DNA from: a virus
Direction: 5' to 3' (one strand)
DNA length: 64,000 nucleotides
IMG/VR virus record: IMGVR_UViG_3300042564_004221
Location: 1-64,000 of that record
Part shown: positions 19,941 through 38,795 of the stretch, one piece after another
How the letters are laid out: every line of letters begins with the position of its first letter
Numbering within the stretch: position 1 is the stretch's first letter
Program-made: the position numbers and the translations under genes
The notes under the pieces: model-generated
Database searches by the model: none
What the model saw: the letters and a program-made list of their open reading frames with translations, nothing else
What the model was told of the DNA's origin: nothing

Positions 19941-19941
19941 A

Positions 19942-20631: not shown

Positions 20632-20681
20632 ATCTTGAATAATAGACAAATTTTCTTATTTTTCAACTAAAACAAACATCT

Positions 20682-22964
20682 ATGTTAAAAATATTTGGAC
20701 ACGGGTCTTACATCGGAGATACAGGTTATAACCATCACACAAGGGATTTTTTCAGACATTTATCAAGTCACGCTCAAATTAAATTTAGAAATTTCACTGT
20801 CGGAAGCAGTTGGAATGGAATGAGTAGTGAACCTCACAATAAAGAGTATTATTTTAACAGCACTGACAGACAAATATTATACGAACAAGTCCTTTGGAAT
20901 AACGATGGAGGTAGGGATAATCATAAAATATATTCAAACTATTCTAAAGAATTTGTTCCCGATGTTAATATTGTTTTATGTGAAACAAACCATCACTTAT
21001 TTTATGATGAATATAATGGTCCAAAAATTGCATATAATGTTTGGGAATCAACCCTACAACCTCCACACTATTTTAACAAACTAAAAGAGTTTGACGAGAT
21101 GTGGGTTCCATCCAAATGGCAAAGGGATATGACAATTGCTCAAGGTTATGACCCAAATAAGATTAAGGTTGTTCCCGAAGGTGTTGATGTTAAAACTTTT
21201 TTCCCTGAAGAAACATCCCACGAATTAACCTCAGATGGAAGATTTAAATTCTTCTTGGCAGGTAGATGGGATTATAGAAAATCAATTAAAGAAATTATTG
21301 AAACATTCTTGAAAACTTTTGATAAAGATGAACCTGTTGACTTAATTGTTTCAATTGATAATCCGTTTTCGAATGACGGGTTAAACACAACAGAAGAAAG
21401 ATTGGAACACTATGGATTTACCGACGATAGAATCAAAATATTACATTTCCCACCAAGAGAAGATTACGTTAAGATATTAAAATCTTGTGATGCGTTTGTA
21501 TCTTGTGCAAGAGCTGAAGGTTGGAATTTACCTTTAATCGAAGCAATGGCATGTGGTACACCTTCCATTTATTCAAATTGTTCGGGTCAATTAGAGTTTG
21601 CCGAAGGTAAGGGTATTCCAGTTAAAATATCACACGAATTACCTGTTAGTGCCAGTTCATACAATCACTTCAATGATAATGTTGGAAACTATTACGAACC
21701 TGATTATAACGATTTGGGAAAACAAATGTGGGATGTGGTAACTAACTATCAATCGCACAAACAAAGAGCGTTAGAAGAGTCCGAAATCATTAGAAAAGAG
21801 TTTAGTTGGGAGCATATTGCCGAGATTGGAATTGAAACCCTAAATGATTTTATGGAAAGAAAACCTTGGCTAAACAAACCAAAGAAAGAAAATAGAGTTA
21901 TCGTCAGTTATTTGGACGGACCTAGAGTTGAGGTGTTGGGGGATGAAAATAAAGATTATCATATTGAATTTATCAATGGTGATACTGATGAAGTAATCCA
22001 CTCCCAAACCATATCAAACAATATGTGGGTTGCGGCAGGTAAGAAATACTACATACCTTGGATTATAAAAATCAATGGACATATCTATGATGTCTTTGAC
22101 TTAACAAATAAAACTGTCCTAATTTCATTAGAATCAAAATCTTTAGGTGATACAATTGCTTGGGTTCCATACGCAGTTGAACTCCAAAAGAAATACAATT
22201 GTAAGGTAATAGTTTCTACATTTATGAATGAACTATTCAAAGGATTGGAAGAATATAAAGATATTGAATTTATAAAACCTGGTCAATCTTGTGATTGTTA
22301 TGTAATTTATAGGATTGGTTGGTTTAGAAAGGACAACACTTGGACTGATTTTGACAGACAACCAAATCAACCTAACTTAATTCCCCTCCAACAAACCGCA
22401 ACCGATATTCTTGGACTTGAATTTAAAGAACTAAATTATGGGCTTAATTTTGTTAAAAAAGAACGTCCAATTAAGAAGGATTATGTTGTATTTGGACCTA
22501 GTGCAACTTCAGGTTGTAAAGAATGGGTTTACGCCAATTGGGTTTCCTTATCAAAGATGATTAAAGAACTTGGTTATGAAGTGGTTATATTAACAAAAGT
22601 TCCTTATAATATTGAGGGAGTGATTAATGTTTGGGGAGAACCTTTAGAGGTTGTTGCCAATTATTTAAAACACTCGGAAGCATTTATTGGTTTAGGTTCG
22701 GGTTTATCTTGGTTTAATTGGGCGTTGGGTAAACACACATTCATGATTAACGGATTTGCCGAACCAGGACACGAATTTACATCAAACTTAACAAGGATAT
22801 ACAACGACAATACTTGTATTTTTTGTTGGAATGATGAGGTATTTGTTTTTGATAGTGGTGATTGGGATTGGTGTCCTGTGTATAAAGGAACCAAAAAACA
22901 ACATATATGTCAAAAGTCTATTACACCATTACAAGTATTTAACCATCTTTTAACCAAAATATAA
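20682..22964 (+). CDS. GT4 glycosyltransferase fused to an Aah/TibC-family (autotransporter heptosyltransferase-like) protein glycosyltransferase
   Basis: N-half has WVPSKW, GRWDYRK and EGWNLPLIEAMACGTP. C-half has KKYYIPW, SLGDTIAW, FIGLGSGLSW and the four-Cys CIFCWND...WCP...C.KSITP motif. Confidence 0.85.
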   Translation: MLKIFGHGSYIGDTGYNHHTRDFFRHLSSHAQIKFRNFTVGSSWNGMSSEPHNKEYYFNSTDRQILYEQVLWNNDGGRDNHKIYSNYSKEFVPDVNIVLCETNHHLFYDEYNGPKIAYNVWESTLQPPHYFNKLKEFDEMWVPSKWQRDMTIAQGYDPNKIKVVPEGVDVKTFFPEETSHELTSDGRFKFFLAGRWDYRKSIKEIIETFLKTFDKDEPVDLIVSIDNPFSNDGLNTTEERLEHYGFTDDRIKILHFPPREDYVKILKSCDAFVSCARAEGWNLPLIEAMACGTPSIYSNCSGQLEFAEGKGIPVKISHELPVSASSYNHFNDNVGNYYEPDYNDLGKQMWDVVTNYQSHKQRALEESEIIRKEFSWEHIAEIGIETLNDFMERKPWLNKPKKENRVIVSYLDGPRVEVLGDENKDYHIEFINGDTDEVIHSQTISNNMWVAAGKKYYIPWIIKINGHIYDVFDLTNKTVLISLESKSLGDTIAWVPYAVELQKKYNCKVIVSTFMNELFKGLEEYKDIEFIKPGQSCDCYVIYRIGWFRKDNTWTDFDRQPNQPNLIPLQQTATDILGLEFKELNYGLNFVKKERPIKKDYVVFGPSATSGCKEWVYANWVSLSKMIKELGYEVVILTKVPYNIEGVINVWGEPLEVVANYLKHSEAFIGLGSGLSWFNWALGKHTFMINGFAEPGHEFTSNLTRIYNDNTCIFCWNDEVFVFDSGDWDWCPVYKGTKKQHICQKSITPLQVFNHLLTKI

Positions 22965-23842
22965 TGAACACAATTTTAATAATACTTAACTCAACTTCAT
23001 TGGGAGATACAATTGGCGTAATGCCGTGTATTGAAAAATTTATATCAAATACGACCGATAATGTCTTGGTTAAAACAAACCCAAGATACAATTCATTATT
23101 CACAAAATCTTATCCTATGGTTAAGTTCTTTGAGGAGGGAATGTTTTTTGACAAACAAATCTCATTAGATTATAACTTTAATCTACCCCTTCAAACAGGA
23201 TTTGCAAATCAACTTGGATTTATGGATTGGGAATATGTTCAACCTAAAGTTGATGTACCTGATAGTGAAAGACCAATAAAGGGGAAATATGTTACCATTA
23301 GTATCCACTCAACCTCTCAATTAAAATATTGGAATCACCCGTTAGGAATTAAAACTCAACCCTTATCACCAAATTGGAATGACCTTTGCGGGTTGTTAAG
23401 AAAAAATGGTTTAACTCCTGTTATTGTTGAAAGGGATGAAATGTTTGGTATTCCTCCATATCGAAATGGTATGCCAAACAAAGCAAATAAAAAAATAGAT
23501 TTATCTATTGATGAAACAATAAGATACATTCAACACTCCGAATTCTTTATTGGATTATCTTCAGGAATATCTTGGTTGGCACATGCAATGGATAAAAAAG
23601 TTGCAATGATTTCTAATTTCTCGGAAGATTGGCATGAGTTTGATTTGTCTTCTGAAAATTATAAAAGAATTACCAACAAATCAGTATGTAATGGATGTTG
23701 GAATAGAATAAATAAAGATTTTTCTTTTGATGCTGGTGATTGGTATTGGTGCCCAAAACATAGAGATACTGAACGCCAATTTGAATGCCATACATCAATA
23801 ACACCTGAAATGGTGTTTGATAACATTAAAGATTGGATTTAA
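22964..23842 (+). CDS. Second Aah/TibC-family (GT9-like) protein glycosyltransferase
   Basis: SLGDTIG, STSQLKYWN, FFIGLSSGISWLAHA and VCNGCWN...WCPKHRDTERQFECHTSITP. Confidence 0.85.
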   Translation: MNTILIILNSTSLGDTIGVMPCIEKFISNTTDNVLVKTNPRYNSLFTKSYPMVKFFEEGMFFDKQISLDYNFNLPLQTGFANQLGFMDWEYVQPKVDVPDSERPIKGKYVTISIHSTSQLKYWNHPLGIKTQPLSPNWNDLCGLLRKNGLTPVIVERDEMFGIPPYRNGMPNKANKKIDLSIDETIRYIQHSEFFIGLSSGISWLAHAMDKKVAMISNFSEDWHEFDLSSENYKRITNKSVCNGCWNRINKDFSFDAGDWYWCPKHRDTERQFECHTSITPEMVFDNIKDWI

Positions 23843-26800
23843 CTATTGAATAACCCTTAATTGATAAGAAAAATCAAGTTTTGATGAATTAGTATCATCT
23901 GAAACAACAACAAGAGCAACCGCTGCTTGGTATTGACACGAACTTGAGATTGAATATTGTTTTTCAAAATCAAAACAAACCATACCAGTTGCACTTATTG
24001 AAACACTATGCCCTGACTCAGAATCTCCAAAAAGTTGAATATAATCAACATCTGTACCTTGGCCGCCATTAGTAAATAAGTCACAATCGGCAATTAAAAT
24101 ATTGGCATATAGTTCGGCACTTGTATCGGTAAGATACCCATAAAAATAAGCGTTTCCACAAAGTCTAAATGTCAAGCTGGTTGTCCCATCTGCTATTACA
24201 ATTGGCGCAAAATTATGTAAGTGGTCTTTTGGCGCTGGCGTTGGAGCAACTAGTTCATCCCAAACACCACCATTCCAACCTTCGTTTGCGTTTCCATAAT
24301 AATAATCAGTAATCACTGGATTGGCAGAATCAGGAGTCACCATACTAGATATAGTTCCAGATGTTACCTGAACAACTGCGGTTACTTCTGCTGCTCCTGA
24401 TGTTCCTGAACTACCACTTGAACCAGCCGCTCCTGATGCTCCTGAAGAACCACTTGAACCTGAACTTCCGCTAGCACCTGACGAACCACTTGAACCAGCT
24501 GCTCCTGATGCTCCTGAAGAACCCGAACTACCATTAGTTCCTGAACTTCCACTTGAACCTGAACGTCCACTTGAACCCGAACTTCCTGAAGAACCACTTG
24601 AACCAGATGCTCCTGAACTTCCACTTGAACCCGAACTACCTGAAGAACCGCTTGAACCAGATGTTCCTGAAGAACCCGAAGAACCGCTAGTACCACTTGA
24701 ACCTGAGCTACCACTTGTTCCACTTGAACCCGAACTTCCGTTGGCTCCTGATGTTCCCGAAGAACCGCTTGAGCCAGATGTTCCACTTGAACCCGATGTT
24801 CCTGAACTTCCGCTAGTTCCCGAAGAACCTGAACGCCCACTTGAACCTGAGCTACCTGAAGAACCGCTAGTTCCACTTGAACCCGAAGAACCATTAGCTC
24901 CGCTCGTTCCCGAAGAACCAGAACTACCACTTGTTCCAGAACTACCTGAACTACCATTGGCACCGCTAGTTCCACTTGAACCTGAACTTCCGCTAGTCCC
25001 TGATGAACCAGATGTTCCGCTTGTTCCCGAAGAACCGCTTGAACCTGATGTTCCTGATGAACCAGAACTTCCATTTGCTCCACTCGTCCCTGAGCTACCT
25101 GAAGAACCAGATGTTCCTGACGAACCACTTGTTCCTGAAGAACCTGAACGTCCACTTGAACCAGACGAACCTGAGCTACCTGAAGAACCGCTTGAACCTG
25201 ATGTTCCTGATGAACCTGAACTACCATTAGCACCACTTGTTCCACTTGAGCCTGAAGAACCGCTAGTACCCGATGAACCTGAAGAACCGTTAATACCACT
25301 TGTTCCTGAACTGCCCGAAGAACCACTTGTTCCACTTGAGCCCGATGTCCCTGAACTTCCACTAGTCCCTGATGAACCCGAACGTCCACTTGAACCTGAT
25401 GAACCACTTGAACCAGATGTTCCTGATGAGCCAGAAGAACCACTTGTTCCGCTTGAACCTGAACTACCGTTAGCACCACTTGTTCCGCTTGAACCTGAAG
25501 AACCACTTGTTCCACTTGAACCCGAAGAACCATTGGCACCGCTTGTTCCCGAACTACCTGAAGAACCAGATGTTCCACTTGAACCTGAAGTTCCTGAGCT
25601 TCCGCTAGTACCTGAAGAACCTGAACGTCCGCTTGAACCAGATGAACCACTTGAACCTGAAGTTCCACTTGAACCCGAAGAACCACTTGAGCCAGAACTT
25701 CCACTTGTTCCCGAACTACCTGAAGAACCAGAAGTTCCTGATGAACCTGAAGAACCATTAGCACCGCTTGTTCCTGAACTACCCGAACTTCCACTTGTAC
25801 CCGATGAACCTGAGCTACCACTTGTACCTGAAGAACCGCTAGTTCCACTTGTTCCCGAACTACCTGAACTACCCGAAGAGCCACTTGTTCCCGAACTACC
25901 CGAACTACCATTAGCACCACTTGTTCCACTTGAACCTGAACTTCCGCTAGTCCCTGAAGAACCTGAACTTCCGCTTGTTCCTGAACTACCCGAAGAACCA
26001 CTAGTACCTGATGAACCTGAAGTTCCTGAACTTCCGCTAGTTCCTGATGAACCTGAACGTCCACTTGAACCACTTGAACCTGAGCTTCCGCTAACACCCG
26101 ATGAGCCGCTTGAGCCAGAACTTCCACTTGTTCCCGAACTACCTGAAGAACCACTTGAACCCGAACTACCACTTGTTCCTGAACTTCCAGAACTACCATT
26201 AGCACCACTTGTTCCTGATGAACCTGAACTACCACTTGTTCCACTTGAGCCCGAACTTCCATTGGCACCCGACGTTCCACTTGAACCCGAAGAACCGCTT
26301 GTTCCGCTTGAACCAGAAGTTCCTGAACTACCACTAGTTCCAGAAGAACCTGAACGTCCACTTGAGCCTGATGAGCCCGAACTACCTGAAGAACCTGAAG
26401 TTCCACTTGAGCCCGAAGAACCACTTGAACCCGATGTTCCTGACGAACCACTTGTTCCGCTTGAACCTGAACTACCATTGGCACCTGAAGTCCCTGAACT
26501 ACCACTCGAACCACTTGTTCCTGATGAACCTGAGCTACCATTGGCTCCACTTGTTCCCGAAGAACCTGAAGAACCGCTAGTACCCGATGAACCTGAAGAA
26601 CCGTTAATACCACTCGTTCCTGAACTGCCCGAAGAACCACTTGTTCCACTTGAGCCCGATGTCCCTGAACTTCCACTAGTCCCTGATGAACCCGAACGTC
26701 CACTTGAGCCTGATGAGCCCGAACTACCTGATGTTCCACTTGAGCCAGATGAACCTGAAGTTCCTGATGAACCTGAACTACCATTGACTCCACTTGTTCC

Positions 26801-29800
26801 TGATGAACCACTTGAACCAGATGTTCCCGAAGAACCTGAACTTCCACTTGTTCCTGATGAACCTGAACTTCCATTGACACCTGACGTTCCACTTGAACCT
26901 GAACTACCGCTAGTACCTGATGAACCTGAAGAACCACTTGTTCCACTTGAACCCGAAGAACCATTGGCACCGCTTGTTCCCGAACTACCTGAAGAACCAG
27001 ATGTTCCACTTGAACCTGAAGTTCCTGAGCTTCCGCTAGTACCTGAAGAACCTGAACGTCCACTAGAGCCCGAAGAACCGCTTGTTCCGCTTGAACCTGA
27101 GGTTCCACTTGTACCTGATGAACCCGAACTTCCACTTGTTCCACTTGAGCCACTTGTTCCACTTGAGCCTGATGAACCAGATGTTCCTGAGCTTCCGCTA
27201 GTTCCTGAAGAACCACTTGAACCTGATGTTCCACTTGAACCTGAACTACCATTGGCACCGCTTGTTCCTGAAGAACCACTTGACCCAGATGTTCCACTTG
27301 AACCCGAACTACCACTTGTTCCAGAACTACCCGAACTACCATTAACACCTGATGTTCCCGAAGAACCTGATGAACCGCTAGTTCCACTTGAACCTGAAGT
27401 TCCTGAGCTTCCGCTAGTTCCTGAAGAACCTGAACGTCCACTTGAACCTGAGCTACCTGAACTTCCACTAGAGCCCGAAGAACCACTTGTTCCACTTGAA
27501 CCTGAACTTCCATTGGTTCCGCTTGTTCCTGAAGAGCCCGAACTACCACTTGTTCCAGAAGAACCTGAACGTCCACTTGAGCCTGATGAACCTGAACTAC
27601 CTGAAGAACCAGATGTTCCCGAACTACCTGAGCTTCCACTTGAACCTGAGGTTCCTGATGAACCACTTGTACCTGAAGAACCTGAGCTACCATTAGCACC
27701 TGAAATTCCACTTGAACCGCTTGAACCAGATGTTCCCGAAGAACCTGAACTTCCACTAGTACCTGATGAACCAGAAGAACCACTTGTTCCACTTGAGCCC
27801 GAACTTCCACTAGTACCTGAAGAACCACTTGTTCCACTTGAGCCTGAAGTTCCTGAGCTTCCGCTAGTACCTGAAGAACCTGAACGTCCGCTTGAACCAG
27901 ATGAACCACTTGAACCCGAACTTCCACTTGTACCCGATGAACCTGAGCTACCACTTGTACCTGAAGAACCGCTAGTTCCACTTGTTCCCGAACTACCTGA
28001 ACTACCATTAGCACCTGAGGTTCCAGATGAACCACTTGAACCAGATGTTCCCGAAGAACCTGATGAACCGCTAGTTCCACTTGAACCTGAACTACCATTG
28101 GCACCTGACGTTCCACTTGAGCCTGAAGAACCGCTTGTTCCACTTGAGCCTGAAGTTCCTGAGCTTCCGCTAGTTCCTGAAGAACCTGAACGTCCACTTG
28201 AGCCTGATGAACCTGAACTACCTGAAGAACCAGATGTTCCTGACGAACCACTTGTTCCCGAACTACCCGAAGAACCACTTGTTCCTGAAGTTCCACTTGA
28301 ACCGCTTGAACCAGAAGTTCCTGAGCTTCCGCTAGTTCCTGAAGAACCTGAACGTCCACTTGAACCTGAGCTACCTGAACTTCCACTAGAGCCCGAAGAA
28401 CCGCTTGTTCCGCTTGAACCTGAGGTTCCACTTGTTCCACTTGAGCCTGATGTTCCACTTGAACCTGAACTACCATTGGCGCCGCTTGTTCCTGAAGAAC
28501 CACTTGACCCAGATGTTCCTGAAGAGCCCGAACTACCATTAGCTCCTGATGTTCCACTTGAGCCCGAAGAACCGCTTGTTCCACTTGAGCCTGAAGTTCC
28601 TGAGCTTCCGCTAGTTCCTGAAGAACCTGAACGTCCACTTGAACCTGAGCTACCTGAAGAACCGCTAGTACCACTCGAACCTGAACTACCACTTGTTCCT
28701 GAGCTACCTGAACTTCCATTGGCTCCGCTTGTTCCACTTGAGCCAGATGAACCTGAAGTTCCTGATGAACCTGAGCTACCATTGGCTCCACTTGTTCCCG
28801 AAGAACCTGAAGTTCCACTTGAACCCGAACTACCATTAGCTCCGCTTGTTCCTGATGAACCACTTGACCCTGATGTTCCACTAGTACCTGATGAACCCGA
28901 ACTTCCACTTGTTCCACTTGAGCCCGATGTCCCTGAACTTCCACTTGTTCCTGAAGAACCTGAACGTCCGCTTGAGCCTGAACTACCTGAAGAACCACTT
29001 GTTCCTGAACTACCTGAAGAACCATTGGCCCCGCTCGTTCCACTTGAGCCTGAACTTCCACTAGTTCCTGAACTACCCGAAGAACCACTTGACCCAGATG
29101 AACCTGAAGTTCCTGACGAACCTGAACTACCATTTACACCTGATGTTCCAGATGAACCACTTGAGCCCGAAGTTCCTGATGAGCCTGAACTACCATTAGC
29201 ACCACTTGTTCCGCTTGAACCAGATGAACCTGAAGTTCCTGAGCCACCCGAAGAACCACTTGTTCCTGAAGAACCTGAAGAACCATTGGCTCCTGAAGTC
29301 CCTGAACTACCTGAAGAACCAGATGTTCCACTTGAGCCTGAAGTTCCTGAGCTTCCGCTAGTACCTGATGAACCTGAACGTCCACTTGAACCTGATGAAC
29401 CACTTGAACCAGATGTTCCTGATGAGCCAGAAGAACCACTTGTTCCGCTTGAACCTGAACTACCGTTAGCACCACTTGTTCCGCTTGAACCTGAACTTCC
29501 ACTAGTACCTGAAGAACCACTTGTTCCTGATGAACCAGAACTTCCACTTGAACCTGCAGTCCCACTTGAGCCCGAAGAACCACTTGTTCCGCTTGAACCC
29601 GATGTTCCTGAACTTCCACTAGTTCCAGAAGAACCTGAACGTCCACTCGAACCAGAACTACCTGAACTTCCACTTGAACCCGAACTACCCGAACCTGATG
29701 TTCCTGAAGAACCACTTGAGCCAGATGTTCCTGAAGAACCACTTGAGCCTGAACTACCTGAACTTCCACTTGAACCGCTAGTTCCTGAAGAACCATCTCC

Positions 29801-32800
29801 ACCTGAAGCACCTTCTAAATTACTCTCCCAACTACAAAAAGTCCCTGTTCCACTTATTGATGTTACTTCTAATACTAATGCACCTGTTGAAGGATTATAA
29901 CTAACAACTTTACCTGTAAAATAATTCGTTACGCTATTTGCAATTAAAACGTTTTGTCCAATAGTATATGACAGTCCTGCCCCTACATTTAAACTAACAT
30001 TAAGACCGATAGTTAAACCACTTAAAGTTATACAGTCCGTAGACAATCCAGAATAATCAGAAGATGTTCCGCTAGTTCCTGAAGAACCACTTGAGCCAGA
30101 TGTTCCTGAAGAACCAGATGTTCCTGACGAACCACTTGAACCTGAGCTACCATTTGTTCCGCTAGAACCTGAAGAACCGCTCGTACCTGATGAACCTGAA
30201 CTACCATTAATACCTGATGTTCCTGAGCTACCACTTGAACCTGATGAACCTGATGAACCTGAACTTCCACTTGTTCCTGAAGAACCACTAGTTCCCGATG
30301 AACCACTTGAACCTGAAGTACCCGAGCTACCACTTGACCCTGATGTTCCAGAAGAACCTGAACTTCCACTTGTTCCTGAAGAACCACTTGAACCTGATGT
30401 TCCTGAACTACCTGAAGAACCGCTGGTTCCACTTGAGCCAGATGTTCCACTTGTTCCAGAACTACCTGAACTACCATTGGTACCACTTGAACCCGAACTT
30501 CCACTAGTTCCTGATGAACCCGAACTTCCACTAGTTCCTGATAAACCTGAACTACCTGAAGTTCCACTTGTTCCGCTTGAGCCTGAAGAACCAGATGTTC
30601 CTGAACTTCCGCTAGTACCTGATGAACCCGATGTTCCACTTGAGCCTGAACGTCCACTAGAACCTGAAGAGCCAGATGTTCCTGAAGAACCTGAGCTTCC
30701 ACTTGCTCCTGATGAACCACTTGAACCAGATGTTCCTGATGAACCTGAACTTCCATTAGCACCACTTGTTCCAGAACTACCCGAAGAACCTGAAGTTCCA
30801 CTTGAACCTGAAGAGCCAGAGGTTCCGCTTGAACCTGAACTACCATTGGCGCCGCTTGTTCCTGAAGAACCACTTGACCCAGATGTTCCTGAAGAGCCCG
30901 AACTACCACTTGTTCCAGAACTACCCGAACTACCATTAGCTCCTGATGTTCCTGACGAACCACTTGAACCTGAAGTTCCTGAACTTCCACTAGTACCTGA
31001 AGAACCTGAACGTCCGCTTGAACCAGATGAACCAGAACTACCTGAAGAACCGCTAGTTCCACTTGACCCTGAACTACCGCTAGTGCCTGATGACCCTGAA
31101 CTACCGCTAGTTCCACTTGACCCTGAACTTCCACTTGTTCCTGATGAACCTGAACTTCCATTAACACCACTTGTTCCACTTGAACCTGAACTTCCGCTAG
31201 TACCTGAAGAACCAGATGTTCCACTTGAGCCCGAACTACCATTAGCTCCTGATGTTCCCGAAGAACCACTTGACCCAGATGTTCCTGACGAACCACTTGT
31301 TCCGCTTGAACCAGATGTTCCTGACGAACCACTTGTTCCGCTTGAACCTGAACTACCATTCGCACCTGAGGTTCCACTAGTACCTGATGAACCTGAAGTT
31401 CCTGAACTACCACTAGTTCCAGAAGAACCTGAACGTCCACTTGAACCAGACGAACCACTTGAACCTGAACTACCACTCGAACCGCTTGTTCCTGATGAAC
31501 CAGAAGTTCCTGAAGAACCCGATGTTCCACTTGTTCCAGAACTACCTGAACTACCATTCGCACCTGAGGTTCCACTTGAGCCAGATGAACCTGAAGTTCC
31601 TGAGCTACCACTTGTACCTGAAGTTCCTGATGAACCTGAGCTACCATTGATTCCACTTGTTCCTGAACTACCCGAAGAACCGCTTGTTCCGTTTGTTCCG
31701 CTTGAACCAGATGTTCCTGAAGAACCTGAGGTTCCGCTAGTTCCTGAAGAACCTGAGGTTCCGCTAGTTCCTGATGAACCTGAACGTCCACTTGAACCAG
31801 AACTACCTGAAGAGCCAGATGTTCCTGATGAGCCAGAACTTCCACTTGTTCCCGATGAACCTGAACTACCACTAGTTCCTGATGAACCAGAACTTCCATT
31901 TGCTCCGCTTGAACCTGAAGTTCCTGAGCTACCACTCGTTCCTGAAGAACCGCTTGAACCAGATGTTCCGCTTGAACCCGAAGAACCATTAGCACCTGAT
32001 GTTCCCGAACTTCCACTTGAACCGCTAGTTCCTGAAGAACCCGAACTTCCATTAACACCACTTGTTCCACTTGAACCTGAACTACCGCTCGTACCCGAAG
32101 AACCTGAGCTACCTGAACCTGATGTTCCCGATGAGCCCGAACTTCCATTTGTTCCTGAAGAACCTGATGAACCGCTAGTTCCAGAACTACCTGAACTACC
32201 ATTAACACCACTTGTCCCACTTGAACCAGAACTACCGCTTGTGCCAGAAGAACCATCTCCTCCTGACGCTCCTTCTAAATTAGTTTCCCAATTACAAAAA
32301 GTTCCCGTTCCTGATATTGCGGTTACTTGTAAAACTAAAACACCTGTTGAAGGATTATAACTAATAACTTTACCTGTAAAATAATTACTTACACTATTTG
32401 CAACAAGTACACTTTGTCCTATTGTATAAGAAAGATTTGTACTTGCGGTTAAAGTAATATTTAACCCAACGGTTAATCCACTTAAAGTTATACAATCCGT
32501 AGATAATCCAGAATAATCAGAAGAGGTTCCGCTAGTTCCTGAAGAACCACTTGAACCTGAAGTTCCACTTGAGCCAGATGAACCTGAACTTCCATTAGTT
32601 CCGCTAGAGCCACTTGAACCAGAAGTTCCTGATGAACCACTTGAACCAGAGATTCCTGAAGAACCTGAGCTTCCGCTAGTTCCCGAAGAACCACTAGAAC
32701 CCGATGTTCCTGAACTACCACTTGTTCCTGATGAACCACTTGAACCCGATGTTCCCGAACTTCCTGAACTACCATTAACACCACTTGTTCCCGAAGAACC

Positions 32801-35077
32801 GCTTGAGCCAGAAGTTCCTGATGAACCTGAACTTCCACTTGTACCTGAAGAGCCACTTGAGCCTGAAGTTCCACTTGAGCCTGAAGAACCGCTTGTTCCA
32901 CTTGAACCTGAAGTTCCCGATGAACCTGAACTACCACTTATACCAGATGAACCTGAACTACCACTTATACCAGATGAACCTGAACTACCATTAGTCCCTG
33001 AAGAACCACTTGAACCAGATGTTCCTGAAGAGCCACTTGTTCCTGAAGAGCCACTTGTTCCTGACGAGCCACTTGTTCCTGATGAACCTGAAGAACCACT
33101 TGAGCCTGAACCTGATGTTCCAGATGAACCTGAACTTCCACTAGTTCCTGACGAACCACTTGAACCAGATGTCCCTGAACTACCACTTGAACCTGAGCTT
33201 CCACTTAAACCTGAACTACCGCTTGTCCCTGAACTACCCGAACTTCCGCTAGTTCCTGAAGAACCCGAACTGCCAGAACCTGATGTTCCTGATGAACCCG
33301 AACTTCCGCTAGTTCCTGAAGAACCACTTGTCCCTGAACTACCCGAACTTCCACTATTACCTGAAGAACCACTTGAACCTGATGTTCCCGAAGAACCTGA
33401 ACTTCCACTAGTACCCGAACTACCTGATGTTCCTGAACTTCCGCTAGTTCCTGATGAACCCGAACGACCGCTTGAGCCAGACGAACCTGAACTTCCACTA
33501 GTACCTGAAGAACCTGAACTTCCGCTAGTTCCTGATGAACCCGAAGTTCCTGATGAACCTGAGCTACCACCACTACCTGAACTTCCGCTAGTACCTGAAG
33601 AACCAGAGGTTCCTGATGAACCTGAACTTCCGTTAGTACCCGAACTACCTGATGTTCCGCTTGAACCACTTGTCCCTGAACTACCACTTGAACCTGATGT
33701 TCCAGATGAACCTGAACTTCCACCAGTCCCTGATGAACCACTTGAACCTGATGTTCCTGAACTTCCTGAACCAGATGTTCCCGAAGAACCTGAGCTACCT
33801 GAACCTGATGTTCCTGATGAACCCGAACTTCCACTTGTTCCTGAAGAACCACTTGAACCTGATGTTCCTGAAGAACCTGAACTACCCGAAGAACCATCTC
33901 CTCCTGAAGCTCCCTCCAAATTAGTATCCCAAGTACAAAAAGTACCTGTTCCTGATATTGCAGTTACTTGTAATACTAAAACACCCGTTAAAGGATTATA
34001 ACTAACAACTTGACCCGTGAAATAGTTAGTGACACTATTTGCAACAAGCACACTTTGTCCTATGGTATAAGAAAGTGAAAGTCCTACATTTAAGGTAGTA
34101 TTTAATCCAACTGTTAATCCGCTTAAAGTTATACAATCCGTAGATGAACCAGCATAATCGGGAGAAGTTCCACTTGTACCTGAACTACCACTTGAACCAC
34201 TTGAACCTGAAGAGCCACTTGAGCCCGAAGAGCCCGAGCTTCCACTTGAACCAGCATTTGTTGTAAATCCTGTTATTGTAACAACACCCCCATAGTTATT
34301 GACTAAGGTTAATGTTTCCGCAGAGCTACTAAACGTACCTCCTGTAATATATGTGTCGGTTAAACCTGTAATTGTTACGGTTCCACCTGTGGCATTATAA
34401 AGTTCTAAATTACCCGCATCATAATCCAAAGTACCACCTGTAACACCCGCCCCTGAACCTGATGTGATACCTGTGACTTGAATTACTGAACCTGTATTTG
34501 TAGTAAATAAAAGTGTATTACCCGAATAGGTTCCACCTGTAATAACAGGGTATGAACCATTAAAAATAATCCAATTTGAATCGTTTCTTGTTGCACCATT
34601 TTGACCTTCAATTGTTGAGCCAGTCCATGCGGTAATTAAATCAACACCTTGAGGTGTTGTTGACCTAACATTTGCACCATAATCACTAAAGATTACTGTA
34701 TTTGTTGCACCTGTCGCATTATCCCAAATGGTTTGATAATTGTCAATTTGAAATTGATAAAAAGTATTGCTCTCATACACATAAGCCAACATACCCAATC
34801 TTCTTCTACCTGTTGACCAATAGTCTGAGTTTAAAGTTAAGATATCAGGTGAATATCCAGCTCCCGTACCTTTAAAAAATTGAATAGGTATCGTTGAACC
34901 TGTTATAAAACCTGTTTGTCCTGAAAAGTTCCATACCAAGTCAGATAGGTTGGCAACCTCCATATAACCACCTGTATTAGATACAGAATAGGTTATACCA
35001 AAATTAGAAGTTGGTTCTAATGATAGTTGGAAACTTTGTCTCGACGCCGAGAGTGGATTATTATATGGAAAACTCAT
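23843..35077 (-). CDS. Giant Gly-Ser/Thr triplet-repeat (collagen-like) fibre protein, 3744 aa
   Basis: One open frame with a globular N-terminus, four (G-X-Y)n blocks, three copies of a ~90-aa inserted domain and a globular C-terminus. Start is coupled to the upstream gene by a TAATG overlap at 35075-35079. Confidence 0.85.
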   Translation of the reverse strand: MSFPYNNPLSASRQSFQLSLEPTSNFGITYSVSNTGGYMEVANLSDLVWNFSGQTGFITGSTIPIQFFKGTGAGYSPDILTLNSDYWSTGRRRLGMLAYVYESNTFYQFQIDNYQTIWDNATGATNTVIFSDYGANVRSTTPQGVDLITAWTGSTIEGQNGATRNDSNWIIFNGSYPVITGGTYSGNTLLFTTNTGSVIQVTGITSGSGAGVTGGTLDYDAGNLELYNATGGTVTITGLTDTYITGGTFSSSAETLTLVNNYGGVVTITGFTTNAGSSGSSGSSGSSGSSGSSGSSGSSGTSGTSPDYAGSSTDCITLSGLTVGLNTTLNVGLSLSYTIGQSVLVANSVTNYFTGQVVSYNPLTGVLVLQVTAISGTGTFCTWDTNLEGASGGDGSSGSSGSSGTSGSSGSSGTSGSSGSSGTSGSGSSGSSGTSGSGSSGTSGSSGSSGTGGSSGSSGTSGSSGSSGTSGSSGTSGSSGTNGSSGSSGTSGSSGTSGSSGSGGSSGSSGTSGSSGTSGSSGSSGTSGSSGSSGSSGRSGSSGTSGSSGTSGSSGTSGSSGSSGTSGSSGSSGNSGSSGSSGTSGSSGTSGSSGSSGTSGSGSSGSSGTSGSSGSSGTSGSSGLSGSSGSSGSSGTSGSSGSSGTSGSSGSSGTSGSGSSGSSGSSGTSGSSGTSGSSGTSGSSGTSGSSGSSGTNGSSGSSGISGSSGSSGISGSSGSSGTSGSSGTSGSSGSSGTSGSSGSSGTSGSSGSSGTSGSSGSSGTSGVNGSSGSSGTSGSSGSSGTSGSSGTSGSSGSSGTSGSSGSSGISGSSGSSGTSGSSGSSGTNGSSGSSGSSGTSGSSGSSGTSGTSSDYSGLSTDCITLSGLTVGLNITLTASTNLSYTIGQSVLVANSVSNYFTGKVISYNPSTGVLVLQVTAISGTGTFCNWETNLEGASGGDGSSGTSGSSGSSGTSGVNGSSGSSGTSGSSGSSGTNGSSGSSGTSGSGSSGSSGTSGSSGSSGTSGVNGSSGSSGTSGSSGSSGTSGANGSSGSSGTSGSSGSSGTSGSSGTSGSSGANGSSGSSGTSGSSGSSGTSGSSGSSGTSGSSGSSGSSGRSGSSGTSGTSGSSGTSGTSGSSGTSGSSGTNGTSGSSGSSGTSGINGSSGSSGTSGTSGSSGTSGSSGSSGTSGANGSSGSSGTSGTSGSSGTSGSSGTSGSSGSSGSSGSSGSSGRSGSSGTSGSSGTSGSSGTSGTSGANGSSGSSGTSGSSGTSGSSGTSGSSGTSGSSGSSGTSGANGSSGSSGTSGSSGTSGSSGSSGTSGVNGSSGSSGTSGSSGSSGTSGSSGSSGTSGSSGSSGTSGSSGSSGSSGSSGRSGSSGTSGSSGTSGSSGSSGTSGANGSSGSSGTSGSSGSSGTSGSSGSSGTSGANGSSGSSGTSGSSGSSGTSGSSGSSGTSGANGSSGSSGTSGSSGSSGASGSSGSSGTSGSSGSSGRSGSSGTSGSSGTSGSSGTSGSSGSSGTSGTSGSSGLSGTSGSSGSSGTSGSSGSSGTNGSSGSSGTSGTSGSSGTSGSSGSSGTSGSSGSSGTSGSSGSSGTSGSSGSSGTSGSSGSSGTSGSSGTSGSSGSSGSSGSSGSSGTSGINGSSGSSGTSGSSGSSGTNGSSGSSGSSGTSGSSGTSGSSGSSGTSGTSSDYSGLSTDCITLSGLTIGLNVSLNVGAGLSYTIGQNVLIANSVTNYFTGKVVSYNPSTGALVLEVTSISGTGTFCSWESNLEGASGGDGSSGTSGSSGSSGSSGSSGSSGTSGSSGSSGTSGSGSSGSSGSSGSSGSSGRSGSSGTSGSSGTSGSSGTSGSSGSSGTAGSSGSSGSSGTSGSSGTSGSSGSSGTSGANGSSGSSGTSGSSGSSGTSGSSGSSGSSGRSGSSGTSGSSGTSGSSGTSGSSGSSGTSGANGSSGSSGTSGSSGGSGTSGSSGSSGTSGANGSSGSSGTSGSSGSSGTSGVNGSSGSSGTSGSSGSSGSSGSSGTSGSSGSSGTSGANGSSGSSGTSGSSGSSGSSGRSGSSGTSGSSGTSGSSGTSGSSGSSGTSGTSGSSGSSGTSGANGSSGSSGTSGSSGTSGANGSSGSSGTSGSSGSSGTSGANGSSGSSGTSGSSGSSGTSGSSGSSGSSGRSGSSGTSGSSGTSGSSGTSGSSGSSGTSGANGSSGSSGTSGSSGSSGTSGANGSSGSSGTSGSSGTSGTSGSSGTSGSSGSSGSSGSSGSSGRSGSSGTSGSSGTSGSSGSSGTSGTSGSSGSSGTSGSSGTSGSSGSSGSSGSSGRSGSSGTSGSSGTSGSSGTSGSSGSSGTSGANGSSGSSGTSGSSGSSGTSGSSGSSGTSGANGSSGSSGTSGTSGSSGTSGSSGSSGTSGSSGSSGSSGSSGRSGSSGTSGSSGTSGSSGTSGSSGTSGSSGSSGTSGSSGSSGTSGSSGSSGTSGSSGSSGISGANGSSGSSGTSGSSGTSGSSGSSGSSGTSGSSGSSGSSGSSGRSGSSGTSGSSGSSGTSGTNGSSGSSGTSGSSGSSGSSGSSGSSGRSGSSGTSGSSGTSGSSGTSGSSGSSGTSGVNGSSGSSGTSGSSGSSGTSGSSGSSGTSGANGSSGSSGTSGSSGSSGTSGSSGTSGSSGSSGTSGSSGTSGSSGSSGTSGTSGSSGTSGSSGSSGRSGSSGTSGSSGTSGSSGTSGSSGSSGTSGANGSSGSSGTSGSSGSSGTSGSSGSSGTSGVNGSSGSSGTSGSSGSSGTSGSSGSSGTSGVNGSSGSSGTSGSSGSSGTSGSSGSSGSSGRSGSSGTSGSSGTSGSSGTSGSSGSSGTSGINGSSGSSGTSGSSGSSGTSGANGSSGSSGTSGSSGSSGTSGANGSSGSSGTSGSSGTSGSSGSSGSSGTSGSSGSSGSSGSSGRSGSSGTSGSSGTSGSSGTSGSSGSSGTSGANGSSGSSGTSGSSGSSGTSGANGSSGSSGTSGSSGSSGSSGSSGTSGSSGSSGSSGVSGSSGSSGSSGRSGSSGTSGSSGTSGSSGTSGSSGSSGTSGSSGSSGTSGSSGSSGTSGANGSSGSSGTSGSSGSSGSSGTSGTSGSSGTSGSSGSSGTSGSSGSSGTSGANGSSGSSGTSGSSGSSGTSGSSGSSGSSGSSGTSGSSGSSGSSGRSGSSGTSGSSGTSGSSGTSGSSGSSGTSGANGSSGSSGTSGSSGSSGTSGANGSSGSSGTSGSSGSSGTSGSSGSSGSSGRSGSSGTSGSSGTSGSSGTSGSSGSSGTSGINGSSGSSGTSGSSGSSGTSGANGSSGSSGTSGSSGSSGSSGSSGSSGRSGSSGTSGSSGTSGSSGSSGTSGANGSSGSSGTSGSSGSSGTSGTSGSSGTSGSSGSSGTSGANGSSGSSGTSGSSGSSGTSGANGSSGSSGTSGSSGSSGSSGRSGSSGTSGSSGTSGSSGTSGSSGSSGTSGANGSSGSSGTSGSSGSSGTSGSSGSSGTSGSSGSSGSSGSSGSSGASGSSGSSGSSGSSGRSGSSGSSGTNGSSGSSGASGAAGSSGSSGASGSSGSSGSSGASGAAGSSGSSGTSGAAEVTAVVQVTSGTISSMVTPDSANPVITDYYYGNANEGWNGGVWDELVAPTPAPKDHLHNFAPIVIADGTTSLTFRLCGNAYFYGYLTDTSAELYANILIADCDLFTNGGQGTDVDYIQLFGDSESGHSVSISATGMVCFDFEKQYSISSSCQYQAAVALVVVSDDTNSSKLDFSYQLRVIQ
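24390..34254. repeat. Degenerate 9-bp-period coding repeat (GSS/GTS/GAN/GRS triplets) in four blocks
   Basis: Continuous gaacc/cctga/ccactt pattern, interrupted at about 29805-30065, 32265-32526 and 33908-34166. Confidence 0.92.
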
Positions 35078-36105
35078 TATGCTACTGTATTACCTTTAAA
35101 GTAAATATTATCGTTGTCTATTATATAGAACGCTACGTCCGCAAATGTTGTATAAACTTTATAAGTGTTTGGCGGTATTGTTGTTCCTGTATATGTGAAC
35201 GAATTATTTCTTATTGTTGAATCTGTTATGACTGTACTCAACGTATTTGCAACTATACCAAAGTCAATCTGTGTTTGTTCTAATCCATTTGTGGCACTTA
35301 CTGGAATAACCCAAGTATACCAAGCAGCAACTCCAATACTTCCAGCTGGTACTTGGTGTGTTATAAAGTTATAAGCGGTAATTGCGTTTCCATAAGCGTC
35401 AAGACCTCCCGAAGTTTGTGGTACCACCTCAAGTTGTACCGCAGGGAATGTTCCACCCGTCCAACCTGAGAATGATACGTATTGGTTCATATCAATATTA
35501 AATTGAGTTGGGTTTATCGTATTAGGTATTGAAGAATTTGTGAATCCAAAGAATGTTCTTGAACTATCCAAATCATACAAGTATTGTCCGATACTTGTTG
35601 AACCTGTTTGAGGTTCAATAAATAAGTAAGCGAAATCAACTGATGGAGTCGATGACGGTGTAGGAGTTGGAGTTGGACTAGTACCAGGACCTTGTGTTGG
35701 AGTCGGAGTAACCGTTGGAGTAACTGTCGGCGTACGTGTATTTGTTGGAGTTACTGTCGGTGTACGTGTATTTGTTGGAGTTACTGTTGGTGTTCGTGTA
35801 TTTGTAGGTGTAATACTTGGAGTAACCGTATTAGTTGGAGTAATAGTTGGTGTTGGTGTTGGTGTTTTAGTTGGAGTTGGTGTAACACAAGCCAAGTTTA
35901 TCGTAACACCACTTAACATTTGTGTTTTTGTTTGAGCCGAATAATAGATTGTTTCATCCAAATAAACATTAAACGGACCAATGGCAGTTGAATTAGATGT
36001 TAACTTAACAAGATATGTAGAACACCCGCTTACGGTTACTTGCTGTTCTATCGCAGCATCACACCCCTCATAAATATTTGTAACGGTTATTACGTATGTT
36101 AACAT
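35077..36105 (-). CDS. Pro/Thr-linker virion-type protein
   Basis: Two beta-rich domains joined by about 80 aa of TPT repeats; translationally coupled to the giant fibre gene. Confidence 0.72.
35731..35810. repeat. 30-bp tandem repeat encoding [10 protein letters not shown]
   Basis: gtacgtgtatttgttggagttactgt(c/t)gg, about 2.5-3 copies. Confidence 0.7.
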
Positions 36106-36169: not shown

Positions 36170-36442
36170 TTAAACCTCCTCAACTATGATTTGAAATGCA
36201 CAACCATAGGTACATTCTAATATTTTAGTTGTTTCACAACCCTCAGAAGATACGACCTTTATCATTATTTCAGGTGCGGTGTCAAATATCTCAGGAATTG
36301 TTGAATTAAATGATTGTGAGGGGGGCACGGGACCAGGATTTATCGTACCAACTAATGTTTCATAATTACCAAAAATATTTGACACATAAACACTCATTGG
36401 ATAGGTACATCCCGATATTGCTTCTATTCTTACTTGTATCAT
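36170..36442 (-). CDS. Small stand-alone SprB-like beta-domain protein
   Basis: VRIEAISG..YP..VY...IP...IKVVSSEGC; similar to 9774..10001. Confidence 0.65.
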   Translation of the reverse strand: MIQVRIEAISGCTYPMSVYVSNIFGNYETLVGTINPGPVPPSQSFNSTIPEIFDTAPEIMIKVVSSEGCETTKILECTYGCAFQIIVEEV

Positions 36443-36452
36443 TATAAAAATA

Positions 36453-38795
36453 TTATGAAGGAGTCATAGTTGGAGTTGGAGTTTTAGTTGGAGTTACGGT
36501 AGGAGTTGCAGTTTTGGTTGGTGTAATGCTTGGTGTCACGGTATTTGTAGGTGTAATACTTGGAGTAACTGTATTAGTAGGAGTAACAGTTGGAGTAACT
36601 GTATTAGTAGGAGTTGTGGTTGGCGTAGGAGTTGTGGTTGGGGTAGGTGTTGGTAATTCACAAGATAAACACATTATATCATAAACAATCGTTAATTCAA
36701 CAACAATTTCTTGCCCATTTAATGTTGTGTCTCCAGCTCTAGTACTAACTTTTATTTGATTACTTACTGAATCGAAGGACACTCCCCCAACACCAGGAAC
36801 TGTTAACAATAAATCTTTAACCGTATCATAATATAAGTTATCGCTTGGTGCCGATACTAATGATGTGGATGTAAAGAAATTTTGACTTGTAGTTAAATTC
36901 AACGGGTTAACCGAAACCTTAACGCCAAATACCGCAGAAAGTAAATCACAATTTACTTTATCAATTGTTAAATCATTAAACCCTTCATTTAACATTTGAA
37001 GTAATCCATATTTTGTTTGTGATTGAATTGTAAATTGTTCACCACCCATCACATAGGTTTGATATGACACATTAAGAGCACTACAATCTATAATTGTACT
37101 TCTTGTTAAAATACAACCATCGTCAGCAACAACAGTTAAACTGTATGTCCCTGCGGTCAATCCTGTAACTTGAATTTGTTGTGGATTATTAGGAACATTG
37201 TCTGACCAATAAAATTCAAATGGTGGTGTTCCTGTTGAAATTAATGCGGTTAACAACCCATCGGAACCTTCTCCACAAGAAGTATTATATAATGAAAAAT
37301 CTAATGGTTCACTTGTGTCAACATAAACTTGTGTCGTTTGAGTACATCCTGTGGCATCGGTAACTGTTATAGTGTGTTGTCCCCAAGATACATTTGTAAA
37401 TGTAACTGCAGATAATGAAGTGTCAAAAATATCTTGAGTGGCATCTAATGAATAATAGTAAGGAGGTTGTCCACCATCACTTTTTGTAACTATAATTGTA
37501 CCATTAGCTTGATTACAAGTTGTTCCTGTAACCTCAGTTGAAATTGTGTATGTATCTGTCGCAAATAAACTGATTTCTTCTATAAACGAACATCCTGAGG
37601 CATCTTGAATCGCAACGCTATAAGTTCCTGTTGATAAATTATTAAATAATTGAGACGATTGTGAAGTTGCTATGTTAGAAGTATTTCCATTAGGATATAT
37701 TAAGGTGTATAAATATGGTGAAGTTCCTCCCGCTAAAGACACTAAAATAGAACCGTCGCTACTTGAGCATGTTGAACCCTGACTTGAGATTACTACTGAC
37801 GCAACACCTAACGGAGTTAATAAAGTTACACTAGCATTTAAAGTACAAAAAGCACAATCCGTAACTAAAAAGTTATAATTACCTGAAGATAATCCACTAA
37901 TTGTCCAAGATGTCGATTCTTGTATCGTAAAATTTCCTGTAGAGGCAGAATAATAATAAGGTGCCGTTCCACCTGTAATTTGTATTGTTATTGAACCGTC
38001 CGCGGCAAAACAAGATGGTTGAACCACAGTAAAGACTCCAAGTCCAATTGGGGAAACATCTGTTACTGTCGCACCTTGACTAGCAACACAACCAAAATTA
38101 TCAGTAACTTGAACTGAATAATTTCCAGCGGTTAACCCTGTAATAAGTGGAGTTGTTTGTCCATTACTCCATAAATAAGTAAATGGCTGTGTTCCTGTAA
38201 CACCTGTTATTCCAATTCTTCCCACAGGTGTACCACCACAACTTGAATTTGGTACCACTTGAATACCAAAACTAAGTGGTGTTGAATCCTCGATTATAAA
38301 ATTTTGACTTTCTCCTGAACATCCTCCCAAATCTTCAGCAGTCATATAATATGTTCCCGCAGTTAAACTACCAAAAATAACATTTGATGTGTTTGTAACT
38401 GCTGATGTGATATAACTTCCATTACCCGAATATAAATAAAAGTTTGTTGAGGAATAATCTGAAGTAGATGTTCCTGTCACTATACCGTTATCTAAACCGC
38501 AAGTGGTACTTTGAACATTTAAAATACTAACACAAATACCTGAAGATATTGGTATGTTAACATAGAATTGTTGGTTTGTTGGTAAGGTACTATCATTAAC
38601 TAAAACACCATACGTCCCCGCACTTAAAGATGTTCTAACAGATGGTAATATTGTTACAACATCTGAACCTAAATTTGGTACTTGCCAATCAATAGTATAT
38701 GGTGGAGTTCCTCCATACGCTAATATGGATGCACTCCCCGCCGATAGTGATAAACAATCACCTGTTATTGATATGGTATAATTAAATGCTGACAT
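36453..38795 (-). CDS. SprB-repeat protein with C-terminal Pro/Thr tail
   Basis: About 7 repeats of C....G.I...GGT.PY.Y.W......GL.AG.Y...V.D..GC. Confidence 0.78.
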   Translation of the reverse strand: MSAFNYTISITGDCLSLSAGSASILAYGGTPPYTIDWQVPNLGSDVVTILPSVRTSLSAGTYGVLVNDSTLPTNQQFYVNIPISSGICVSILNVQSTTCGLDNGIVTGTSTSDYSSTNFYLYSGNGSYITSAVTNTSNVIFGSLTAGTYYMTAEDLGGCSGESQNFIIEDSTPLSFGIQVVPNSSCGGTPVGRIGITGVTGTQPFTYLWSNGQTTPLITGLTAGNYSVQVTDNFGCVASQGATVTDVSPIGLGVFTVVQPSCFAADGSITIQITGGTAPYYYSASTGNFTIQESTSWTISGLSSGNYNFLVTDCAFCTLNASVTLLTPLGVASVVISSQGSTCSSSDGSILVSLAGGTSPYLYTLIYPNGNTSNIATSQSSQLFNNLSTGTYSVAIQDASGCSFIEEISLFATDTYTISTEVTGTTCNQANGTIIVTKSDGGQPPYYYSLDATQDIFDTSLSAVTFTNVSWGQHTITVTDATGCTQTTQVYVDTSEPLDFSLYNTSCGEGSDGLLTALISTGTPPFEFYWSDNVPNNPQQIQVTGLTAGTYSLTVVADDGCILTRSTIIDCSALNVSYQTYVMGGEQFTIQSQTKYGLLQMLNEGFNDLTIDKVNCDLLSAVFGVKVSVNPLNLTTSQNFFTSTSLVSAPSDNLYYDTVKDLLLTVPGVGGVSFDSVSNQIKVSTRAGDTTLNGQEIVVELTIVYDIMCLSCELPTPTPTTTPTPTTTPTNTVTPTVTPTNTVTPSITPTNTVTPSITPTKTATPTVTPTKTPTPTMTPS

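Follow-up and report, generated by a model that had tools for sequence, protein, structure and literature searches.

According to collagen biophysics, a stable triple helix needs imino acids, charge pairs or hydration by Thr/Gln. BclA, the collagen-like filament protein of the exosporium nap of Bacillus anthracis and B. cereus, has fewer than about 100 Gly-X-Y triplets. Its collagen region is O-glycosylated according to the account given in a 2022 review, which treats the collagens of bacteriophages as very short (PMC8968730). Enzymes of the TibC family are Ser-O-glycosyltransferases that hyperglycosylate a long repetitive substrate in the cytoplasm (PMC4358343). Glycosylation of phage virions has one published precedent, in mycobacteriophages, whose glycosyltransferases decorate their own virion proteins according to the summary of Freeman et al. 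2023 given in PMC12619734. Here we describe a giant fibre gene from a 64,000-nucleotide stretch of viral DNA (positions 1 to 64,000 of IMG/VR virus record IMGVR_UViG_3300042564_004221, hereafter the window), the product of which carries about a thousand proline-free Gly-X-Y triplets and which abuts a gene for a TibC/Aah-like protein O-glycosyltransferase. Our literature search found no paper linking a TibC-type heptosyltransferase, a phage and a collagen-like protein, and nothing relevant on proline-free or serine-rich phage collagens. The window fibre is genuine and stands at the extreme of a class that recurs but has not been published.

The fibre gene is a single open reading frame (ORF; Table 1), in which triplets were counted as Gly-X-Y in runs of at least four. 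Gly is unsubstituted in all 1007 of them, while X is Ser in 610, Thr in 304, Ala in 46 and Arg in 23, and Y is Ser in 937 (93%) and Asn in 56. The periodicity is not due to chance, because Gly is never substituted while X takes nine different residues and Y takes five. Pro is absent from X and Y, all 17 Pro residues of the protein being located in its globular parts, and only 26 of the 2014 X and Y residues (1.3%) are charged. The usual collagen stabilizers (Pro or hydroxyproline at X/Y, abundant charge or Gln/Thr) are not what characterizes this stalk, since Ser dominates both positions. Gly-Gly pairs are absent from the stalk and Gly is almost never present at X or Y. A 301-amino-acid (aa) sample of the stalk matches the Pfam Collagen family (PF01391) at 153.8 bits, compared with a gathering threshold of 27.2, and also matches many 'collagen-like tail fibre' families of PHROG, including 'collagen like minor tail' ones. 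Other frames also stay open over long distances, for example at 24382-29133 (minus strand) and 24741-29900 (plus strand), but these ORFs were rejected as by-products of the repeat, as only the 3744-aa frame joins homologous N- and C-terminal domains.

The original prediction was of about 1000 triplets with mostly Ser or Thr at X, almost only Ser at Y, no Pro and little charge, and the counts above agree with it in each respect. It also placed Gly at every third residue over about 3000 aa. This holds for Gly itself; however, the tract is not fully continuous, being interrupted by three globular inserts of ~85 aa and a few short breaks, at each of which a triplet is one residue short (context GTS-GS-GSS). 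The predicted length of about 0.85-0.9 micrometre is reproduced by our calculation, in which the four stalk segments, taken at 0.286 nm per residue, add up to 864 nm if triple-helical (8.6 + 129 + 210 + 517). That the repeat is of the collagen type is borne out by the Pfam score and by the insert architecture, which is common to canonical collagen-like proteins and S74-tipped trimeric fibres. The longest unbroken run has 588 triplets (aa 1800-3563) and consists of 18 super-repeats of ~30 triplets, each opening with Gly-Arg-Ser (GRS). Asn at Y recurs, commonly 7-10 triplets apart.

Analysis of the DNA reveals that the stalk is not a clean tandem array, as Tandem Repeats Finder detects only units with 60-80% matches. 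The longest exact internal repeat is 141 nucleotides long and every 151-mer is unique. Where identical 27-aa peptides occur at different positions, the mean identity of the DNA encoding them is 73.6%, to be set against 64.4% for synonymous codons drawn at random and 100% for newly made duplicates, so the repeat copies have moved ~74% of the way to synonymous saturation with the protein repeat kept. The stalk repeat is old and under selection. Complete genes are also present on independent viral contigs and encode proteins of 3352 aa with 882 triplets (L035), 3709 aa with 940 triplets (L060), 2666 aa with 797 triplets, including one run of 641 (L040), and 3010 aa with 756 triplets (L075). A gross assembly artefact is unlikely because the 151-mers are unique, the copies have diverged and similar-sized complete genes are found on these contigs. 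A second copy of the exact 3744-aa protein was not found in the clustered protein collection.

The enzymes encoded next to the fibre gene (Table 1) are two paralogues of the TibC/Aah type. The 760-aa protein matches Pfam glycosyltransferase family 4 (GT4) models, TibC_1st and GT9, and is related to the TibC structure in the PDB (4rap) with an E-value of 4.6e-40. The 292-aa paralogue is without the N-terminal beta-barrel, and its gene is convergent with the fibre gene, stop codon against stop codon. The catalytic Asp110 is conserved in both paralogues, together with Thr226, Lys230, Trp305 and the iron-finger residues Cys339, Cys342, Cys358 and Cys370 (numbering of TibC from Yao et al. 2014, PMC4358343). 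No autotransporter is present among the annotated genes of the window, and the fibre is the only massively Ser-rich protein nearby. TibC-like genes were found in just four deposited phage records, at 32-35% identity; no collagen gene is annotated near that of Microcystis phage Mel-JY01. In the sugar-tailoring cassette beyond the two enzymes, the DegT/PseC-like aminotransferase ORF (19296-19940, minus strand, 214 aa) covers only the N-terminal quarter of the family model and may be truncated, split or repurposed.

Association of such enzymes with such stalks was assessed across viral loci. A total of 79 viral loci were retrieved with the stalk, 71 of them Pro-free and Ser/Thr-rich. A TibC-like gene is present within 10 kb in 17 of these 71 loci compared with none of 80 control loci retrieved with P0261, another collagen-like protein carrying the same insert (Fisher p = 8.5e-7, an optimistic value because the set lacks phylogenetic independence and some loci, such as L056/L057 and L083/L100, are near-duplicates). 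At the Ser-stalk loci the TibC-like gene is usually convergent and located just downstream, with gaps as small as 34 nucleotides. In the reciprocal test, a Pro-poor Gly-Ser/Thr-Ser tract was found within 10 kb at 6 of 28 viral TibC-like loci, and the two closest of these (G002 and G003) share the convergent arrangement of the window. In the L001 record, which is 15% complete and breaks off within the fibre gene, the absence of a TibC-like gene is uninformative. Loci retrieved with the N-terminal domain of the fibre had been considered as a negative control and were dropped because only three were returned; the P0261 set was used instead. Across these sets, the TibC-type enzyme is specific to the Ser stalk class.

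Related stalks in other viruses extend this class. L001 has the same stalk and insert (83% identical) with a different N-terminus. In G003, a 317-kb record rated 100% complete, the fibre gene seems to run across the junction of the contig ends, with its two halves (L030:3-4082 and L031:14959-17259) at opposite ends of the linear sequence and at least 329 + 152 triplets. In G006, an unbroken run of at least 427 triplets leads into a terminal Peptidase_S74 chaperone (52.8 bits), and L109 ends in a similar-looking tail, as judged by eye only. The fibre gene is cut by the contig end in G002, G003, G006, L001 and L113, and the repeat is a systematic assembly break point in related large phages. The window copy is the only complete gene among the closest relatives and the largest Ser-class example among the loci examined. 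A Ser-stalk sub-class (L060:4175-15301 and L075:3701-12730) has the Gly of about every seventh or eighth triplet replaced (ATS, RTS, NTS, NLS) and thus hundreds of regularly spaced one-residue interruptions. There is also a second giant class with Pro-poor, uncharged Gly-(Leu/Thr/Ile)-Gln stalks of at least 1101 triplets and runs of 714-782 (L191, L167, L131, L118 and others); a TibC-like neighbour of these giants was found at none of the 80 control loci. Proline-free, near-micron stalks of the collagen type are thus a general feature of environmental phages. The uniqueness implied by the original prediction does not stand, as Ser-stalk giants of up to 940 triplets and the Gly-X-Gln class are common in viral metagenomes. 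Its glycosylation idea has strong genomic support in the two abutting TibC/Aah-type genes and their co-occurrence with Ser stalks, from which we infer a sugar on the stalk itself. Overall, that first interpretation is partly supported.

Homologues of the N-terminal domain of the fibre number at least 477; the proteins are 483-2000 aa long, are encoded on contigs of up to ~320 kb and have the domain fused to varied distal parts such as DUF285, Peptidase_S74 (in the relative P0066, for example), PF26696 and a beta-propeller. A Gly-X-Y tract is present in none of the best 120 homologues. Identity to the domain is 36% for the 317-kb phage G003 and rises to 73-84% for L113-L115. No usable match was obtained from Pfam, PHROG, PDB sequences or the ESM Atlas, and a tblastn search of 50,697 deposited phage records gave no match. 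Judged from this distribution, the domain behaves as would be expected of a common virion adaptor for interchangeable fibres.

The inserts are found mainly inside collagen-like proteins. With a profile built from five copies, 1793 representative clusters were retrieved, and among the best 150 of them 115 have at least 10 Gly-X-Y triplets. These 115 are mostly ordinary Pro-rich Gly-Pro-Thr/Gln proteins, while 13 are Pro-free with Gly-Ser/Thr-Ser. Therefore, the insert is a general collagen-associated domain. The AlphaFold2 (AF2) model of insert 2 is a small closed beta-barrel with a predicted local distance difference test (pLDDT) score of 92. Foldseek gave no match to this fold at E <= 0.001. 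The best VIA-align match is a baseplate protein of phage JBD30 (Z = 7.7), within the possibly generic range of the tool and so consistent only. Structurally, the insert comes closest to domains that lie in line within baseplate and fibre proteins of phages (Z up to 7.7), which is suggestive, not diagnostic. With regard to trimerization, the collagen-associated insert and the C-terminal domain are candidates, and relatives of the stalk protein carry S74 chaperones. One Cys near the start and one near the end (C13 and C79 of the insert alignment) are present in all five close copies and not across the wider family, and it is possible that they form a disulfide staple at the junction of helix and node. 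The only relative of the C-terminal domain is the tip encoded by the G002 orthologue (58% identity), which surfaced via the TibC-like gene loci; a pattern scan of IMG/VR gave no relative. This domain has no match in Pfam (S74 included), PHROG, PDB or the ESM Atlas.

Table 1. Features of the fibre locus, with positions in the window and the basis of each assignment (segment lengths as if triple-helical).
Feature	Position	Strand	Basis or content
Giant fibre gene	23843-35077	-	single ORF, 3744 aa, 1007 Gly-X-Y triplets
N-terminal domain, putative adaptor (aa 1-275)	34253-35077	-	globular part, then three ~28-aa 'TGGTY...ITG' repeats
Stalk segment A, 10 triplets, ~9 nm (8.6)	34163-34252	-	triplet count
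Insert 1, ~85-aa beta-barrel node	33914-34162	-	alignment of insert copies
Stalk segment B, 150 triplets with short one-residue-deletion breaks, ~129 nm	32522-33913	-	triplet count
Insert 2, beta-barrel node, copy used for folding	32273-32521	-	alignment and AF2
Stalk segment C, 245 triplets, ~210 nm	30062-32272	-	triplet count
Insert 3, beta-barrel node	29813-30061	-	alignment of insert copies
Stalk segment D, 602 triplets including the 588-triplet run, ~517 nm	24389-29812	-	triplet count
C-terminal globular tip (aa 3564-3744)	23843-24388	-	putative receptor-binding end
292-aa TibC/Aah-like protein O-glycosyltransferase paralogue	22964-23842	+	TIGR04414, 186.8 bits, below cut-off of 200
760-aa fusion of GT4 glycosyltransferase and complete TibC/Aah-type domain	20682-22964	+	TIGR04414, 224.5 bits, above equivalog cut-off of 200
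Sugar-tailoring cassette	12489-20649	-	FkbM methyltransferases, DegT-like fragment, GT8 + methyltransferase protein, two hexapeptide acyltransferases, DUF6625 protein, esterase
342-aa partner with Thr/Pro-rich linker	35077-36105	-	translationally coupled to fibre gene, TAATG overlap
Upstream structural module: orf90, 780-aa SprB-repeat protein, 994-aa protein	36170-41779	-	synteny; SprB by Pfam
Baseplate genes: gp6-like Baseplate_J and gp25-like wedge, marking the tail module	51553-53873	-	annotation

The contig from which the window is taken is 99.8 kb long (G000:C1:1-99789) and 32% complete by CheckV. It encodes a gp25-like wedge, a gp6-like Baseplate_J protein, a class II ribonucleotide reductase, a gp41-like helicase, RNase H and gp32, and also a weakly RecA/UvsX-like protein. 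This gene content indicates a T4-like myovirus, which is probably a jumbo phage. Among deposited phages, those closest in gp6, at only ~27% identity, are Flavobacterium phage immuto, Microcystis phage Mel-JY01 and one uncultured phage of 484 kb. Of the genes upstream of the fibre gene, that for the 994-aa protein keeps its place in L035, L037, L051, L087, L091 and L113-L115, where the product is up to 79% identical; for orf90 and the 780-aa protein, synteny extends to G003. The 342-aa gene is kept directly upstream of the fibre gene in L113, L115, L043 and G003. The conserved block formed by these four genes ends at the hypervariable slot of the fibre gene. In L114, a 190-kb contig with an N-terminal domain 73% identical to that of the window, the same slot holds a fibre of 545 aa with only 48 + 10 triplets.

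Several other features of the contig were observed. The linker of the 342-aa protein is ~90 aa long and rich in Thr and Pro (TPTPT...), and is plausibly another O-glycosylation target. SprB-type repeats are present in the conserved 780-aa structural protein (36453-38795, minus strand) and in a second protein (10016-12190, minus strand), and both proteins match phrog_15511 weakly. SprB repeats are known from the gliding adhesins of Bacteroidota, and those of the contig may hint at a Bacteroidota host. GATC and CCGG, two common restriction/methylation targets, are totally avoided by the contig, with no site of either in 99.8 kb where base composition predicts ~310 and ~81, respectively. The Ser codon TCC is used for none of the 1641 Ser codons of the fibre gene, compared with 4.2% of the Ser codons in other genes. 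At Y positions this absence results from CCGG avoidance, because TCC followed by GGN gives CCGG; it does not account for the absence at the 611 Ser codons of X positions. No tRNA gene is present on the contig.

We propose that the fibre is a homotrimer on the virion of this T4-like, probably jumbo, phage. The 275-aa adaptor would dock the fibre on the particle, and the order of the genes makes the baseplate or tail the most likely site. The stalk would be a triple helix of Gly-Ser/Thr-Ser triplets divided by the three in-line beta-barrel nodes, which would probably nucleate the three chains and hold their register, while the C-terminal globular domain would act as the receptor-binding tip. Such a helix would be without proline and almost without charge, and for this reason the Ser/Thr hydroxyls on its surface probably receive O-linked sugars, added in the cytoplasm of the host by the two adjacent TibC/Aah-type transferases. 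The fused GT4 domain and the neighbouring tailoring cassette might elaborate the glycan, and the resulting sheath would stabilize, stiffen and protect the helix. A longer flexible fibre would also enlarge the encounter radius, working as a capture line. This proposal builds on what is observed: the repeat and the domain layout, the setting in a structural module of a phage, what the enzymes are and how specifically they accompany Ser-rich stalks. Comparative evidence favours the trimer and the helix: Gly is conserved under synonymous turnover, the insert is collagen-associated and related stalks are tipped with Peptidase_S74, a hallmark of obligately trimeric fibres. Enzyme identity and co-occurrence make glycosylation probable. 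As a whole, we regard a homotrimeric, O-glycosylated triple-helical fibre with a receptor-binding tip as evenly poised between right and wrong. A more demanding version, in which a Pro-free, nearly uncharged helix of near-micrometre length depends on dense Ser/Thr O-glycosylation by the phage enzymes for its folding or stability and serves as a capture line in dilute water, is possible but doubtful, and we put it forward tentatively.

A number of points weigh against the glycosylated helix, in addition to the non-independence of the loci behind the p-value. Ser is a weak triple-helix former according to host-guest peptide work, and no characterized precedent was found for a helix without imino acids and with 1.3% charge. 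The helix is inferred, as structure prediction covered single chains. The AF2 model of the N-terminal domain (pLDDT 60, predicted template modelling score 0.34) is too poor for a fold search, so that the docking site is a presumed one. With regard to the enzymes, Arg286 of TibC aligns with Val in the longer paralogue (760 aa) and with Thr in the shorter one (292 aa), so that three of the four sugar-binding residues are kept, and Pro300 is replaced by Gly in one paralogue and Ser in the other. Because of these replacements the donor, ADP-heptose for the BAHT protein O-heptosyltransferases, is uncertain here. The heptose-pathway genes gmhA and rfaE domain I are not present on the contig, which at 32% completeness is uninformative. 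No TibC-like gene is found in the flanks of 54 of the 71 Ser-stalk loci, and most TibC-like loci have no stalk within 10 kb, so the enzymes could act on other targets. Finally, phage and fibre are known from sequence alone.

An inflated or chimeric repeat, with a true gene much shorter or split, would account for the facts that the contig of every close relative breaks within the repeat, that the exact protein is not on record elsewhere and that the L114 orthologue has just 58 triplets. However, exact internal repeats do not exceed 141 nucleotides and all 151-mers are unique, a single frame stays open over 11.2 kb and links homologous N- and C-terminal domains, and independent contigs hold complete genes of 797-940 triplets; we therefore consider an assembly artefact very improbable. 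The protein might alternatively fold into a polyglycine-II bundle, a compact array of short antiparallel polyproline-II helices, in which case its length would fall far below 0.86 micrometre. Such bundles, as in the snow-flea antifreeze protein and the gp38 adhesin tips of T4-like phages, likewise have Gly at every third position flanked by small polar residues, and the recurrence of Asn at Y would fit as well. Yet a regular turn or loop motif is missing from 588 consecutive triplets, as are Gly-Gly pairs, the same inserts occur in ordinary Pro-rich collagens and the stalk scores as Pfam Collagen, which makes a bundle hardly credible.

The stalk could also be a glycosylated tether that is not helical and is kept stretched by dense O-glycosylation, either as one mucin-like, intrinsically extended chain or as three independent chains that meet solely at the nodes. 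Its composition, lacking Pro and almost lacking charge, is like that of O-glycosylated linkers, protein O-glycosyltransferases are encoded next to it, and the coupled 342-aa protein has a Thr/Pro linker of its own. But a mucin-like tract needs no Gly at the third position, and here all 1007 are kept at ~74% synonymous saturation; the insert, moreover, is common to canonical Pro-rich collagens and related stalks have S74 trimer chaperones. We consider such a tether quite unlikely. A triple helix that carries no sugar, being stabilized by Ser/Thr hydration, length and nodes while the TibC-like enzymes modify other virion proteins or the host envelope, is in our view likewise unlikely. The giant Pro-poor Gly-X-Gln stalks without a TibC-like neighbour suggest that sugar is not generally needed for Pro-free giants, and the Ser-stalk loci whose flanks lack the gene point the same way. 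Against this, the TibC-like gene is specifically enriched by Ser stalks and abuts them in a conserved convergent arrangement in the closest relatives, and enzymes of its family are cytoplasmic Ser-O-glycosyltransferases that act on repetitive substrates.

The significance of the locus lies in a Gly/Ser/Thr stalk of ~1000 triplets, a kind met again in dozens of phages and linked through its genomic neighbourhood to a family of protein Ser-glycosyltransferases known so far only from bacterial adhesins. With Ser stalk and TibC-type enzyme paired, what glycosylation contributes to the stability of a triple helix can be tested directly. If the glycosylated helix is confirmed, it would represent a new mode of collagen stabilization, the first TibC-family enzyme with a substrate other than an autotransporter, and one of the longest appendages of any tailed phage. 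It is possible that glycosylation of virion fibres is widespread in aquatic phages and that the fibres are several times as long as the particle. The hypervariable fibre slot, which ranges from 58 to 1007 triplets among close relatives, might tune encounter rate and host range. For metagenomics, the repeat explains why many large-phage contigs end at the fibre locus, and for materials science it might offer designs for long, proline-free collagens independent of hydroxylation.

Comparison with described systems reveals partial similarities only. BclA resembles the window fibre in being a collagen-like filament with an N-terminal anchor, a C-terminal globular domain (a trimer in BclA) and a hydroxy amino acid at Y. 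However, BclA is a bacterial, Pro-rich Gly-Pro-Thr protein whose glycosyltransferases are not of the TibC type, whereas the window fibre is Pro-free, phage-encoded and far longer. The collagen-like tail fibres of phages and prophages, such as that of the E. coli O157 prophage (PMC3368898), likewise have Gly-X-Y stalks flanked by non-collagen trimer domains. The published phage collagens are short and typically rich in Pro or Thr/Gln, in contrast to the Pro-free stalk of the window, which is 10-50 times longer. In the mycobacteriophages, as far as the cited summary describes them, the glycans are on C-terminal extensions of capsid and tail-tube subunits, the enzymes belong to other families and the acceptor is not of the collagen type. 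Mimivirus combines virus-encoded collagen with glycosylation machinery and amino-sugar tailoring genes, according to the accounts in PMC8968730 and PMC9614988. However, it is a eukaryotic giant virus that uses the hydroxylysine route with a bifunctional hydroxylase/glycosyltransferase, and its enzymes and stalk chemistry are unrelated to those described here. The closest enzymatic counterparts are the TibC-TibA and Aah-AIDA-I pairs of the bacterial autotransporter heptosyltransferases (BAHT; TIGR04414; PDB 4RAP and 4RB4), of which the window enzymes are true relatives that keep the catalytic Asp, three of the four sugar residues and the four Cys. They differ in being without Arg286 and Pro300, in the fusion of one to GT4 and in the missing N-terminal barrel of the other. 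The acceptor there is an autotransporter beta-helix, while here it would be a repeat of the collagen type.

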